From the IMG/VR virus record IMGVR_UViG_2700989496_000004: 37,032 nucleotides of DNA, one strand, 5' to 3'. The position numbers and the translations under genes were made by a program. Under the pieces are notes generated by a model, which saw nothing but the letters and a program-made list of their open reading frames with translations, ran no database searches and had not been told where the DNA came from. The stretch is from a virus. Taxonomy: Duplodnaviria; Heunggongvirae; Uroviricota; Caudoviricetes. Of the stretch, positions 1 to 4,306 are shown in pieces; the stretch's first letter is position 1; every line of letters begins with the position of its first letter.

Positions 1-150
1 CCGATAGAGCGTGGTATCGCGGGCCCCGGATTACTTGCCCGCGTGTTAACGGGAAAATACTGCGAACATCTGCCACTGTATCGTCAGAGTGAAATCTTTG
101 CCCGCCAGGGTGTCGAACTGAGCCGGGCCTTACTCTCCAACTGGGTTGAC
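1..150 (+). pseudogene. IS66-family transposase fragment, interrupted by the prophage end
   Basis: Frame 1 from position 1 translates without stops to PIERGIAGPGLLARVLTGKYCEHLPLYRQSEIFARQGVELSRALLSNWVD, containing the HLPLYRQ motif recalled for IS66 transposases. The frame ends at a TGA (151-153) that is also the start of the Mu-like end sequence. Confidence 0.6.
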
Positions 151-228
151 TGATGCGCCGCGCGATAAATGCACTCTATCTTGTGCGATAAATGGCATCC
201 ACGCGGCGTTTCATTATTTGAAAAAGAA
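151..228. repeat. Prophage terminus (gin-proximal end) with putative transposase-binding repeats
   Basis: Starts 5'-TGATGCGCCGCGCGATAAATG, resembling the Mu R-end TGAAGCGGCGCACGAAAAAC as recalled. GCGATAAATG occurs twice (162-171 and 185-194), 23 bp apart, just outside the gin stop. Confidence 0.5.
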
Positions 229-801
229 TTACATTTCAGGTTGCGTTATGACAGTCCCAACAGGGTGATAGCGGTAGATCGTTGACAGTCCAATATCATA
301 GATAATTGCCAGCCGCTTTCTGTCATACCCTTTCTGGAGCAATCTTGCGATCTGCTCATGCTGCTCCTTCGTCAGTTTCGGGCGACGTCCTCCAACTCTT
401 CCTTGTGCTCGCGCAGCAGCCAGTCCAGCCAGCGTGCGCTCAACTATCAGTTCACGCTCCATTTCTGCCAGTGCACCCATCATATGAAAAAAGAACCTTC
501 CCATCGGAGTGCTGGTATCGATTGAATCCGTCAGACTGCGAAAATTGACACCTTTTGCGCGTAGCTCTTCTGTGAGAGCAATGAGGTGTTTCATTCTTCT
601 ACCCAACCGATCCAGCTTCCAGACCACCAATGTATCCCCTCTTTTAAGGCACTTTAAAGCGCGTTTCAGGCCTGGTCGTTCCGACTTGGTTCCGCTCATT
701 TTGTCCTCAAAAATCTGTTCACATCCTGCGCACATTAATGCATTGCGTTGCAAATCTGTGTTTTGGTCATTTGTTGACACACGTATGTAGCCAATCAGCA
801 T
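229..801 (-). CDS. gin: Serine DNA invertase, Gin/Hin/Pin/Cin family
   Basis: Protein begins MLIGYIRVSTNDQNTDLQRNAL, close to Mu Gin as recalled, about 190 aa. AAGGGAG lies 8 nt upstream of the ATG at 799-801. The 233-aa track ORF carries an unlikely N-terminal extension. Confidence 0.93.
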   Translation of the reverse strand: MLIGYIRVSTNDQNTDLQRNALMCAGCEQIFEDKMSGTKSERPGLKRALKCLKRGDTLVVWKLDRLGRRMKHLIALTEELRAKGVNFRSLTDSIDTSTPMGRFFFHMMGALAEMERELIVERTLAGLAAARAQGRVGGRRPKLTKEQHEQIARLLQKGYDRKRLAIIYDIGLSTIYRYHPVGTVITQPEM

Positions 802-857
802 TAAAAATACTCCCTTTTGAGTGGTTAAAGTACTGAGATAATGTGGGGAGGATTTGA

Positions 858-885
858 GAGATAAACGTTGGTTTGGGGGAAGGCT
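858..885. repeat. cix/gix-like crossover site 1
   Basis: Reverse complement reads CCTTCCCCCAAACCAACGTTTATCTC. It sits at the 5' edge of the conserved fibre segment shared by all three cassettes. Boundaries approximate. Confidence 0.55.
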
Positions 886-1301
886 CGGCGCTGCCCGTTG
901 GTGTACCTGTTCCGTGGCCCACTGCCACACCGCCAGCAGGCTGGTTAAAGTGCGACGGGCGCGCCTTTACAAAAGAACAATATCCTGTTCTGGCCAGAGT
1001 CTACCCGACCCTCCGTCTTCCCGATTTACGCGGTGAGTTTATCCGTGGATGGGACGACGGGCGAAAAGTGGATACAGGGCGCGATCTGCTTTCACGGCAG
1101 GATGGTACAAGTTTTTCTCATTACGCAGGTAATTTTGACATTGGGTCTGGTCATTCAATCAATAACTATGACCAAATCGTTGACAACCAACCTGGATTCT
1201 CCCGTTTTTCATTTGCAGGTCCTTCGCGAGGCGATGGGGTTAATTATGTGACCATTCGTCCCCGTAACATTGCGTTTAATTACATCGTAAGGGCGGCATA
1301 G
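873..1301 (+). CDS. Silent alternative tail-fibre C-terminal cassette 1 (no own start or promoter)
   Basis: First ~70 codons (GEGSALPVGVPVPWPTATPPAGWLKCDGRAFTKEQYPVLARVYPTLRLPDLRGEFIRGWDDGRKVDTGR) are identical to an internal segment of the expressed fibre 2394-3731. The tail then diverges and ends ...RPRNIAFNYIVRAA. Confidence 0.75.
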   Translation: MGEGSALPVGVPVPWPTATPPAGWLKCDGRAFTKEQYPVLARVYPTLRLPDLRGEFIRGWDDGRKVDTGRDLLSRQDGTSFSHYAGNFDIGSGHSINNYDQIVDNQPGFSRFSFAGPSRGDGVNYVTIRPRNIAFNYIVRAA

Positions 1302-1325
1302 AAACGTTGGTTTGGGGGAAGGCTC
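1298..1325. repeat. cix/gix-like crossover site 2
   Basis: AAACGTTGGTTTGGGGGAAGGCTC repeated at 1302-1325, same orientation as site 1. Boundaries approximate. Confidence 0.55.
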
Positions 1326-1773
1326 TGCATTGCCTGTTGGTGTACCGGTTCCATGGCCCACCGCCACACCGCCAGCAGGCTGGTTACAGTGCAACGGAGC
1401 TACGTTCACCAAAGAACAATATCCTGTTCTGGTCAGAGTCTACCCGACCCTCCGTCTTCCCGATTTGCGCGGTGAGTTTATCCGTGGATGGGACGGTGGT
1501 CGCAAGGTTGATACCGGGCGTGCGCTACTTTCATTTCAGGAAGGGACTATCGTATCCGGTTTTGATGATAATGATACCGGAGATATCAGTTCGCTCGGCT
1601 CTACACAATACGGATTTGGTGACGCTTTAACCTCTAATCAACTGGGGGTCTTAAATGGCAAAAAGTGGATATTTGATGCATCCTCTAAAGGTGCACAAAG
1701 ATATGACTGGTGGGCTTATGTATCAGCTCGCCCCCGCAATATCGCATTTAACTATATCGTGAGGGCGGCGTGA
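1312..1773 (+). CDS. Silent alternative tail-fibre C-terminal cassette 2
   Basis: Begins GEGSALPVGVPVPWPTATPPAGWLQCNGATFTKEQYPVLVRVYPTLRLPDLRGEFIRGW, then a distinct tip ending ...RPRNIAFNYIVRAA. No start codon of its own. Confidence 0.75.
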   Translation: MGEGSALPVGVPVPWPTATPPAGWLQCNGATFTKEQYPVLVRVYPTLRLPDLRGEFIRGWDGGRKVDTGRALLSFQEGTIVSGFDDNDTGDISSLGSTQYGFGDALTSNQLGVLNGKKWIFDASSKGAQRYDWWAYVSARPRNIAFNYIVRAA

Positions 1774-1779
1774 TACCGT

Positions 1780-2394
1780 TCAGCCGGCAAGCGCCAGTGG
1801 CGCTTCCGGCCAGCTGATTTCAGGTGCCTTGCTGATATCCAGTGCGTTCAGCTCGTCGATATAATCCAGCACGGCGTTCAGTTTTGCCGTTTCTTCTGGT
1901 TTCAGACTGCGACCAGCACGCAGTTTGAGGTTGATAAGATCGACGGACGCCATCGCCTGTTTCACCCGTTGCTGGCGTTGCTGTCTGGCAACCTCCAGTT
2001 CTGCGGCTCGCTGCCGTTCAGTATCGGTTACCCACGCCTCACCGTTCCAGGTATCCCATGGCGTGGCTGGCTGTTTTGTGGTGGTGTCCGCCGGGTAATC
2101 ACCCGGTTGGGTAATCAGAACGGGGTTACCGTTCTCCGTGCTGTATACCGTCTCGCCGCGGTGATCAGGCACATGCTCCCACCCGTTCAGCGTGGCAGTC
2201 CGGCAAACCACGTAACCCGAAATTGCTTCCGGCGGTGCATCGGCGCACGAATGTGCCGGAGTACCCACCCCAAGGGCGAGATACTCCACAGAGGATGAGG
2301 TGTATTCCCGGGTTTCCTCGTCATAGTGATATACAGTGATATCGCCCGCTACAGTGGCGATACCGTTTTCATCCAGAACTGCAGTGTTACTCAT
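1780..2394 (-). CDS. Tail fibre assembly protein (Tfa, Mu U-like)
   Basis: 204 aa immediately downstream of the fibre gene, start overlapping the fibre stop. Call rests on position and recalled Tfa-like character. Confidence 0.7.
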   Translation of the reverse strand: MSNTAVLDENGIATVAGDITVYHYDEETREYTSSSVEYLALGVGTPAHSCADAPPEAISGYVVCRTATLNGWEHVPDHRGETVYSTENGNPVLITQPGDYPADTTTKQPATPWDTWNGEAWVTDTERQRAAELEVARQQRQQRVKQAMASVDLINLKLRAGRSLKPEETAKLNAVLDYIDELNALDISKAPEISWPEAPLALAG

Positions 2395-3731
2395 TAAACT
2401 GCCCTCACAATGTAATTAAGTGCAATGCTACGGGGTCTGACAGTGATACCCTTCGCATACCCGCTTCTGATAGAGGTCAGAATAGTAGCCTGCATACCAT
2501 TGTCTGACATTGCCACGACAGGATCGCTGAATGTTGTCCCGTCCGGCATTTTAAAGCTGCCCTCACGAAGGTCTGTAATGGAATCTTCATTGTTGAATCC
2601 CATGCCGACTATCCCCGAGGTTCCCGTAGTGTCCTGGTTATAATAATCCAGCATTGCTGTTCTTAACAGCGTTGCCCCTTGTGCGGACAGCAACTTACGT
2701 CCTGTATCAACTTTGCGCCCGTCGTCCCATCCACGGATAAACTCACCGCGTAAATCGGGAAGACGGAGGGTCGGGTAGACTCTGGCCAGAACAGGATATT
2801 GTTCTTTTGTAAAGGCGCGCCCGTCGCACTTTAACCAGCCTGCTGGCGGTGTGGCGGTGGGCCACGGAACAGGCACACCAACGGGTAGCGCCGAGCCTTC
2901 TCCTAAACCAAGGTAATTGAGGACATCTTTTATACTGCCCTTAGCGATAATAGCGCGACCAATAGCTGTAAGGGTTGCCAGCTCTGCGCGGTCTGCTCCG
3001 GTAAAATAAGGCAACCGATCTGCTGCAGTGGCAAGTCCTGCCAGAGCAGTGAGCGTGGCATCTGCCGGTTGTTTTCCGTTTGCCAGATCGTATGCAGCCT
3101 TGACCGCTTTCGGTGTGGCGGCCAGTATTTCAGACGTGCTGTTGATGGCACTGCTCAATTGTACGGTGCCTTTTGCCGTCAGCGAGGCAGCAGGCACTCC
3201 CGTTATCTGACTCCACGGGTGAGTGTGGCTGACGGGCGCCTTGCCGGCTGCAAGGTCGTATGCAGCCTTGACCGCCTTCGGCGTGGCAGCCTCAGTTTCT
3301 GATTGACTGTCCGTGGCGCTGCTCAGTTGTACGGTGCCTTTTGCCGTCAGTGAAGCCGCAGGCACTCCCGTTATCTGACTCCACGGGTGAGTGTGGCTGG
3401 CAGGCGCCTTGCCGGCTGCCAGGTCGTATGCAGCCTTGACCGCTTTTGGTGTGGCGGCCAGCGTTTCAGAGGTGCTGTTGGTGGCACTGCTCAGTTGGGT
3501 GAACCCCTTAGCTGTCAGTGTCGCGTCCGGGTGGTTACGGGAACGTACGTGTTCAGCCAGTGACTGTGCGGCTTCCTCCGTTTTCTTCTTCAGCCATTTC
3601 GTCCTGTTTGCCAGTTGCCGGGGGGCTCGATTTGATATCCCGTCTGCACCACCCAGAACCGGATCTGATGTCTCCAGTTGATAGATATTTTCTTCCCACT
3701 TTTCTGTTTCATTCAGGTTTCCCATAATCAA
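2394..3731 (-). CDS. Tail fibre protein (constant N-terminal part plus currently expressed variable tip)
   Basis: 445 aa with three ~55-aa tandem repeats (TAKG..QLSSA..S.SE..AATPKAVKAAYDLAAGK...HTHPWSQITGVPAASL) followed by the conserved crossover segment and a tip ending ...RPRSIALNYIVRAV. Start overlaps the stop of the upstream gene. Confidence 0.88.
   Translation of the reverse strand: MIMGNLNETEKWEENIYQLETSDPVLGGADGISNRAPRQLANRTKWLKKKTEEAAQSLAEHVRSRNHPDATLTAKGFTQLSSATNSTSETLAATPKAVKAAYDLAAGKAPASHTHPWSQITGVPAASLTAKGTVQLSSATDSQSETEAATPKAVKAAYDLAAGKAPVSHTHPWSQITGVPAASLTAKGTVQLSSAINSTSEILAATPKAVKAAYDLANGKQPADATLTALAGLATAADRLPYFTGADRAELATLTAIGRAIIAKGSIKDVLNYLGLGEGSALPVGVPVPWPTATPPAGWLKCDGRAFTKEQYPVLARVYPTLRLPDLRGEFIRGWDDGRKVDTGRKLLSAQGATLLRTAMLDYYNQDTTGTSGIVGMGFNNEDSITDLREGSFKMPDGTTFSDPVVAMSDNGMQATILTSIRSGYAKGITVRPRSIALNYIVRAV
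2893..2920. repeat. cix/gix-like crossover site 3 (inverted relative to sites 1 and 2, inside the expressed fibre gene)
   Basis: Minus strand reads ACCTTGGTTTAGGAGAAGGCTCGGCG..., i.e. TTCTCCTAAACC-AA-GGT on the complement. Homology to cassettes 1 and 2 begins here. Boundaries approximate. Confidence 0.55.
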
Positions 3732-4306
3732 CTGCTCCCGTGGTTATAACTGCCATCATGGATGGCGGTATTGTTATAGCGAATGGCCACAGACTGATAC
3801 TCCAGGCTGGCCAGATGGCAGCGGGCCGGTGCAAATGCAGCCAGCGTCTGACGCAGCATCGCGGCCTGATCGTTAGTAATGGGCTGTTTCAGAATAACGC
3901 GATAAACTGCCCAGGCGGCTGCATCTCCATGAACAAACAGTCCGTTATAGCTGCGATTGCCGTCGTAACTGAGACGACCTGTGCCTTCAATCAGATCCAC
4001 TTCACCAAAGCCAAAACGGCGGATAACTTCCCGGATTGACCACGGCGTCCCTTTATACCGGTGCAGTTCGATGGCTGCTTTTATAAGCATGCGGCGAACA
4101 TCGTCCGATTCCGCCAGCTCCCAGCCATCGCCAGACAGTGAGAACTGCTCGCCCAGCCATGGCAGCGCGGAACTGTCGACGATATCGACGAGAAAGACCA
4201 TCAGTACGCTCAGGTCGATGTTATCCAGCCGTCCTGCCAGTCTTCCCAGCGTCCTGAGACTGATATCACCCTCAAGCGGTGGCGGGAGTTGTAATGGCTC
4301 AGTCAT
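3728..4306 (-). CDS. Tail protein, P2 gpI / Mu gp48-like
   Basis: 192 aa, position between the baseplate J-like gene and the fibre gene, start and stop overlapping neighbours. Confidence 0.65.
   Translation of the reverse strand: MTEPLQLPPPLEGDISLRTLGRLAGRLDNIDLSVLMVFLVDIVDSSALPWLGEQFSLSGDGWELAESDDVRRMLIKAAIELHRYKGTPWSIREVIRRFGFGEVDLIEGTGRLSYDGNRSYNGLFVHGDAAAWAVYRVILKQPITNDQAAMLRQTLAAFAPARCHLASLEYQSVAIRYNNTAIHDGSYNHGSS

Follow-up and report, generated by a model that had tools for sequence, protein, structure and literature searches.

Three crossover sites, four DNA isomers and three tail-fibre tips at the fibre end of the Mu-like prophage Phi2 of Escherichia coli EC958

The locus considered here, and the three-site design to which it conforms, were both described in 2014. 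In enteropathogenic Escherichia coli (EPEC) E2348/69, Goldberg et al. (Genome Med, PMC4272514) reported a P2-like prophage with three homologous inverted repeats and three alternative C-termini, for which four variants coexist and were all shown by PCR. In E. coli EC958, Forde et al. (PLoS One, PMC4134206) obtained PacBio contigs with an inversion between the two outer sites (sites 3 and 1 below) of prophage Phi2. Their account tabulates these sites as Phi2_5prime and Phi2_3prime, with an invertible segment of 2067 bp, and its text on Phi2, Table 3 included, makes no mention of the middle site, the second silent cassette or the arrangements termed C and D below. The subject of this study is the same locus as it occurs in IMG/VR virus record IMGVR_UViG_2700989496_000004, a DNA stretch of 37,032 nucleotides (the window), in which a preliminary description had placed an invertase-driven tail-fibre switch at positions 229–3731. 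The locus is, with high confidence, a multiple DNA-inversion switch of the Gin/Pin/Cin/Min kind, carried by a Mu-like transposable prophage.

Window positions 148–4300 are identical to the chromosome of EC958 (sequence type ST131) except at one base, and correspond to the tail-fibre end of Phi2, next to aroA. The remainder of the EC958 element encodes a DDE transposase, a MuB-like ATPase, Gam, Mor, Mu-type head proteins and P2-type tail proteins, and this Mu-type gene set identifies Phi2 as a Mu-like transposable prophage. The fibre gene (445 aa, positions 2394–3731, minus strand) has P2-type baseplate genes next to it. Domain and repeat searches recovered an invertase, three copies of a conserved block, two silent tip cassettes and a tail fibre assembly (Tfa) gene essentially where the preliminary description had put them (Table 1), while the block, thought to be a segment of about 90 bp, proved to extend over 229 nt.

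The copy of the block within the fibre gene (2686–2914) is inverted with respect to the other two, at 865–1093 (94% complementarity, 229 nt) and 1304–1532 (85% complementarity); these two, on the plus strand, form direct repeats with a spacing of 439 nt. The block comprises 76 codons, specifying a phage tail Collar domain, and the final ~12 codons of every tip make up a second common block (1260–1294 vs. 2401–2435). A 26-bp crossover site lies at the outer edge of each 229-nt block, with an AA/TT core in three of three sites; site 3 falls inside the fibre gene, at the boundary between its constant and variable parts. The conserved 17-mer TTCYCCYAAACCAASGT has three exact copies in the 37-kb window (865–881, minus; 1304–1320, minus; 2898–2914, plus) and appears in 0 of 100 shuffles of the window sequence. 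The earlier reading of these elements as three cix/gix-like sites holds as to their number; alignment of the core and the variable-side half-site with Mu gix and e14 pix places them nearer to pix (TT core) than to gix (GA/TC). The sites differ from one another at the base just 5′ of the core and then again 7 nt into the tip, which places the exchange within TTGGTTT.

Table 1. Features at the left end of the window (positions in the window; site sequences given with the core set off by hyphens)
Feature	Position	Strand	Basis and remarks
IS66-family transposase gene fragment	1..147	+	Pfam DDE_Tnp_IS66, E = 5e-15; identity to EC958 Phi2 from 148
Serine DNA invertase, Gin/Pin/Cin/Hin family, 190 aa	229..801	-	Resolvase and HTH_7 domains
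Candidate recombinational enhancer, two Fis-like 15-mers (694-708, 648-662)	648..708	.	Inside the 5′ part of the invertase gene
Crossover site 1, beside invertase, TTCCCCCAAACC-AA-CGTTTATCTCTC	856..881	-	Core 868-869; Phi2_3prime of Forde et al. 2014, Table 3
Silent tip cassette 1, 143 codons and stop	870..1301	+	Collar domain; conserved block to 1093, variable head, conserved C-terminal strand
Crossover site 2, middle, TTCCCCCAAACC-AA-CGTTTCTATGCC	1295..1320	-	Core 1307-1308; overlaps cassette 1 stop codon
Silent tip cassette 2, 154 codons and stop	1309..1773	+	Collar domain; PHROG match
Tfa, tail fibre assembly protein, 204 aa	1780..2394	-	Caudo_TAP, E = 6e-27; phrog_105 tail fiber assembly
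Tip A, C-terminal 171 codons of expressed fibre	2394..2909	-	Three-tip alignment; Collar domain at fibre residues 285-332
Crossover site 3, TTCTCCTAAACC-AA-GGTAATTGAGGA	2898..2923	+	Core 2910-2911; Phi2_5prime of Forde et al. 2014
Constant fibre N-terminal part, about 273 codons	2912..3731	-	Phage_fiber_2 domain, three stretches
P2 gpI-type baseplate protein	3728..4306	-	Tail_P2_I domain; RefSeq annotation; same late operon, upstream of fibre

The invertase aligns with the Mu Gin structures 4M6F and 3UJ3 with E-values of about 1e-92 (4M6F, 9e-93), and its sequence identity is 73% with Mu Gin, 75% with e14 PinE, and 84% with the P2-like prophage invertases of E2348/69 and strain 4/0. Ser9 and Met114 of Gin are aligned and both present; the former is the catalytic residue, and the mutation M114V frees Gin from its need for Fis (PMC3575834). 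The locus thus contains what characterizes a Gin/Pin-type system: a small serine recombinase with a catalytic N-terminal and an HTH C-terminal domain, 26-bp elements in which two imperfectly inverted half-sites enclose an identical 2-bp core, and exchange between inverted sites at that core. Inversion is very probably catalyzed by this enzyme, as part of the reading of the locus as a whole. Mu gin and the 5′ part of the invertase gene can be aligned with no indels, and the same two Fis-like 15-mers occur at nt 94 and 140 in each; the switch may depend on Fis and an enhancer.

In the proposed mechanism, the invertase would pair site 3, in the fibre gene, with either of the oppositely oriented sites 1 and 2, cut the shared AA/TT core, and rotate and religate the strands, so that a segment would be inverted, 2042 bp long on pairing with site 1 and 1603 bp long on pairing with site 2. 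Each event would join the constant 273-codon N-terminus to another tip, and would do so in frame every time because the core occupies codon positions 2–3 of the same Leu/Val codon in all three copies. Three sites would yield four DNA isomers and three fibres. Isomers were constructed in silico by exchange at the core dinucleotides of the three sites, with L denoting the left flank with the invertase gene, R the right flank with the constant fibre part, a cassette 1, and b cassette 2 together with tfa and tip A. The resulting arrangements are 0 (L a b R, that of the window), which expresses tip A (445 aa) and in which tfa would be translationally coupled to that tip; B (L b′ a′ R) and D (L b a′ R), which both express cassette 1 (417 aa); and C (L a b′ R), which expresses cassette 2 (428 aa). 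All fusions are open and in frame.

All four isomers occur in nature. Junction searches covered 5,426 complete E. coli genomes, with a cut-off of at least 80% query coverage. The parental middle junction (arrangements 0 and B) was found in 205 genomes, the junction of the constant part with cassette 1 (B and D) in 157, that of the constant part with cassette 2 (C, in one piece, and B, in two pieces) in 202, and that of the cassette 1 3′ end, the site and tip A (C and D) in 185. Because single searches join pieces across the 439-nt cassette, they cannot separate 0 from D or B from C; isomer counts were therefore solved from the four pairwise junction counts, which gave approximately 118 genomes for arrangement 0, 87 for B, 115 for C, and 70 for D. 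Full-length alignments of about 4.15 kb support each arrangement individually: EC958 has arrangement 0 (4153 nt, one mismatch), R7 arrangement B (4150 nt, one mismatch), LS4 arrangement C with cassette 2 fused (4153 nt, two mismatches), and strains 1435 and AR_0086 arrangement D (100%), with no mismatch at a junction in any of the four isomers. That a single invertase gene and three sites allow either silent tip to be fused in frame to the constant N-terminus, as the preliminary description proposed, is borne out by these natural isomers, and its absence-of-isomers test comes out in favor of the switch. Its count of three alternative tips also stands, as three fibre proteins of 445, 417, and 428 aa; to this are added the four DNA isomers that encode them. 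With three sites, four natural isomers and one invertase gene, the locus falls under multiple inversion, defined by more than two crossover sites and more than two isomers served by one invertase gene.

The junction of the cassette 1 3′ end, the site and tip A is only possible through exchange at the middle site. At least 30 genomes, all among the matches listed, carry all 731 nt of it at 100% identity, and a coverage of 80% or more is reached in the full 185. A classical two-site Mu-like switch, in which sites 1 and 3 would do all the switching and the middle site and downstream cassette would be an inert duplicate, is what the two sites and one 2067-bp segment listed in Table 3 of Forde et al. 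(PMC4134206) would lead one to expect; this junction refutes it, and the verification of arrangements C and D over about 4.15 kb, together with the fusion of the constant part to cassette 2 in many genomes, leaves it extremely improbable.

Nor are the arrangements at all likely to be assembly artefacts rather than real DNA isomers, the least credible of the alternatives weighed here. Inverted repeats can mislead assemblers, and the passages of Forde et al. (PMC4134206) on this region report spurious extra contigs from it. However, the same passages trace the extra contig to real mixed orientations in PacBio reads, a 229-nt repeat is far below the length of a long read, the complete genomes come from many laboratories, every arrangement recurs in tens of them, and for the homologous EPEC module there is verification by PCR (Goldberg et al. 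2014, PMC4272514).

The position of the breakpoints bears on whether the isomers might be made by RecA-dependent homologous recombination between the 229-nt inverted repeats instead of by the invertase. The repeats are long and 85–94% identical, and there are two traces of gene conversion between them: in strain R7 the conserved block of cassette 2 has a C-to-T change, and in strain 4/0 cassette X2 combines a cassette-1-type conserved block with a tip-A-type head. Homologous exchange would nevertheless scatter breakpoints over the 229 nt, whereas each cassette retains its own conserved block intact from 7 nt past the core in every isomer checked, and queries built by exchange exactly at the core find 100% matches in dozens of genomes. 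Confinement of the breakpoint to TTGGTTT is as expected of a site-specific enzyme, and unlike homologous recombination along the repeat. As an intact Gin/Pin-type invertase and sites with matching cores are also present at the locus, RecA-dependent origin of the isomers is considered very unlikely, and site-specific inversion at three sites remains strongly preferred.

Strains 1435 (arrangement D; NZ_CP184025.1) and 1436 (arrangement 0) share one unusual prophage insertion, in ompF, and differ in isomer, so that switching must be recent. In both strains ompF is annotated as a truncated pseudogene with a Mu-like prophage inside, which means that this major porin gene is inactivated. In strain S5 (NZ_CP107137.1), the invertase gene is split by ISEc23, an IS66-family element, at approximately window position 585, and the module is in arrangement D; this strain is a candidate for a natural locked isomer.

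The three tips share 76 N-terminal residues, which make up the collar, and a C-terminal RPR(N/S)IA(F/L)NYIVRA motif, and differ in a middle part of ~55–85 residues. The collar matches structures of T4 gp37 and of the short tail fibre, and the variable head presumably binds the receptor. The conserved C-terminal strand might fold back against the collar. Cassettes 1 and 2 are open, are without a normal start codon, and match tail-collar-fibre PHROGs up to the C-terminal end of the profile. Comparison of cassette 1 with its E2348/69 orthologue gives a dN/dS of 0.14 overall and 0.08 in the variable part, which indicates that it is kept by purifying selection and is not a decayed copy; with the fusions in frame as well, the suggestion that the silent cassettes might be decayed duplicates can be set aside. 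An AlphaFold2 model of the cassette 1 tip, made from a three-sequence alignment, had a mean pLDDT of 39 and was unusable. In the constant part, the N-terminal repeats weakly match the N-terminal repeats of Mu S, and only these parts of the fibre match Mu S. The Phage_fiber_2 shaft is encoded by three tandem 168-nt repeats (3073–3576) with identities to the first copy of 100%, 84%, and 61%. The fibre of the P2-like prophage in strain 4/0 has one extra repeat of the 168-nt type, and shaft length may vary with repeat number.

In every isomer examined, RefSeq splits the intact fibre open reading frame of 445, 417, or 428 aa into two or three fragments or “incomplete” pseudogenes, and sometimes annotates the silent cassettes as genes with internal GTG or TTG starts. 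The fragmented fibre calls are an annotation artefact, not decay.

The tfa start codon overlaps the stop codon of tip A (TAATG), as read from the sequence, and this is the sole Caudo_TAP gene of the window. The RefSeq annotation of the remaining EC958 prophage lists no second tail fibre assembly gene, and a PDB search with Tfa returned no matches. From the isomer geometry, tfa is downstream of the fibre gene in arrangements 0 and D, whereas in B and C the two genes are antisense to each other. The earlier statement that Tfa stands beside the expressed tip only is right as regards a sole gene, and incomplete as regards cassette 1, which in one of its two isomers (D) has tfa downstream in the same orientation. 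B and D encode the same fibre, but only D has tfa downstream of it, and the four isomers might on that account amount to four functional states, not three. A tip without a Tfa of its own might fold unaided, as the preliminary description suggested, might be served by this Tfa through the conserved C-terminal strand, or might use the Tfa of another prophage.

Several points weigh against the reading of the locus as a switch among three receptor-binding tips, or limit its reach. That the tips differ in receptor specificity is an assumption based on how far their variable parts have diverged. Cassettes 1 and 2 are without a tfa of their own, and the related short collar tips of phages pro483 and SKA5 each have one; with a single tfa for its three tips, the locus genuinely departs from that pattern. 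The genome counts are approximate, including some P2-like prophages with the same cassettes and depending on the 80% coverage cut-off. Inversion in the window's own strain is deduced from identical loci elsewhere. The two Fis-like 15-mers, picked out by sequence resemblance, are 46 bp apart. In the Hin and Gin enhancers the spacing is 48 bp.

Exchange of tips may extend beyond a single prophage. Compared with EC958, strain 4/0 (NZ_CP023849.1) has an inversion of ~45 kb, spanning aroA to dmsA and most of a P2-like prophage, with one end at the site beside the Phi2 invertase and the other at a TT-core site of the same type inside the P2-like fibre gene. The fibre that this gene encodes (571 aa) has thereby acquired the Phi2-type cassette 2 as its C-terminal end, and two invertase genes flank cassette X1, cassette X2 with tfa, and cassette X3, in a segment without a fibre N-terminus. 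As cassette 2 and X3 are identical for 126 nt past the core, the breakpoint can be narrowed down only to the core and those 126 nt, and site-specific and homologous exchange are not distinguished. Strains 4/0 and 4/1-1 were considered as an isogenic pair for dating the 45-kb inversion and rejected, their P2-like prophages having different fibre modules. It is a tentative idea, rather doubtful on present evidence, that the three-tip module serves as a shared tip library, recombined by the invertase between different prophages of one chromosome. If the 4/0 inversion were site-specific, the switch would also transfer tips between unrelated phages and rearrange the host chromosome.

The cassettes themselves are mosaic. 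The conserved block of cassette X2 in strain 4/0 is of the cassette 1 type, identical for 196 nt, and is followed by a head of the tip A type, while in R7 one base of cassette 2 is converted to the state of cassette 1 and tip A. At least seven different tip heads occur across three modules, with a common collar and C-terminal strand. These patterns suggest that gene conversion and cassette exchange have acted on top of inversion.

The first 147 nt of the window are host or plasmid flank carrying the insertion of the Mu-like prophage, and lie outside the switch. The IS66-family transposase gene stops abruptly at 147, and the prophage end follows, with a Mu-type TG at ~151 and repeated GCGATAAATG motifs. 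This junction is absent from the complete E. coli genomes of the collection. In other genomes the genes directly next to the prophage end include ompF, zntB, yeiB and irp1; such varied neighbors fit a Mu-like phage that is still transposing, as they suggest this one to be. A sigma-70 scan of positions 1–4300 found no promoter-like sites, and terminator-like sites at or below chance level; the scan says little, because Mu-type late promoters need an activator.

The switch would let a temperate phage of the pandemic ST131 lineage hedge among three tips with a presumed role in receptor binding. It also explains assembly differences in this region between near-identical strains, the fragments and pseudogenes of RefSeq fibre annotation, and the spurious extra contigs produced by long-read assemblers. 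What is added to the 2014 descriptions is that the middle crossover site of Phi2 works, as the recovered junctions show, that all four isomers are common, in comparable numbers, across roughly 390 complete genomes, and that Mu-like and P2-like prophages have the module of one tfa and three tips in common. These additions are modest, and leave the general understanding of such switches unchanged.

The module of EPEC E2348/69 has the layout described here, in the order constant part with tip 1, tip 2, tfa and tip 3 on the opposite strand, and invertase. Its nested inversions are ~2.0 and 1.6 kb with an offset of 432 bp; here the lengths are 2042 and 1603 bp and the offset is 439 bp. Both modules have the same site sequence (ACC-TT-GGTTTGGGGGAA) and a single tfa beside three tips; the single-tfa design is also seen in the module of strain 4/0. 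Cassette 1 is the orthologue of E2348/69 tip 1, 90% identical in the variable part. In contrast, the host phage in E2348/69 is P2-like and not Mu-like, its other two tips are of other types, and tfa is linked to a tip other than A.

Likeness to the G segment of Mu and Gin lies in the invertase beside the segment, the 26-bp sites at the constant/variable boundary, the in-frame swap of C-termini and the Mu-type host. The G segment, however, has two sites with a GA/TC core and two tips, each with a Tfa (S-U, S′-U′), whereas the locus described here has three sites with a TT/AA core, three tips and one tfa; instead of a two-site mirror image (Sv-U/U′-Sv′), its layout has a pair of silent cassettes in tandem, with three sites and only the one tfa. 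The tips are of the collar type, like T4 gp37 and gp12, and unlike the Mu S tip. The P segment of e14, inverted by Pin, has the same core and nearly the same variable-side half-site (AAACC-TT-GGTTTGGGAGAA), but has two sites and two tfa genes (tfaP, tfaE) as opposed to three sites and one tfa. The Min system of p15B likewise has a single invertase of this family for more than two crossover sites, six in that case, and shuffles several C-termini of a fibre; its isomers are far more numerous than those here. A 1994 review by Sandmeier, to which Forde and colleagues refer, reportedly covers multiple inversion in p15B. The R64 shufflon is similar in that several inversions give alternative C-termini of a surface-recognition protein; there, however, the tyrosine recombinase Rci acts on 19-bp sfx sites in pilV, while here a serine invertase of the Gin/Pin/Min type acts on a phage tail fibre gene, and the name “shufflon”, used in the preliminary description, does not fit in the strict sense.

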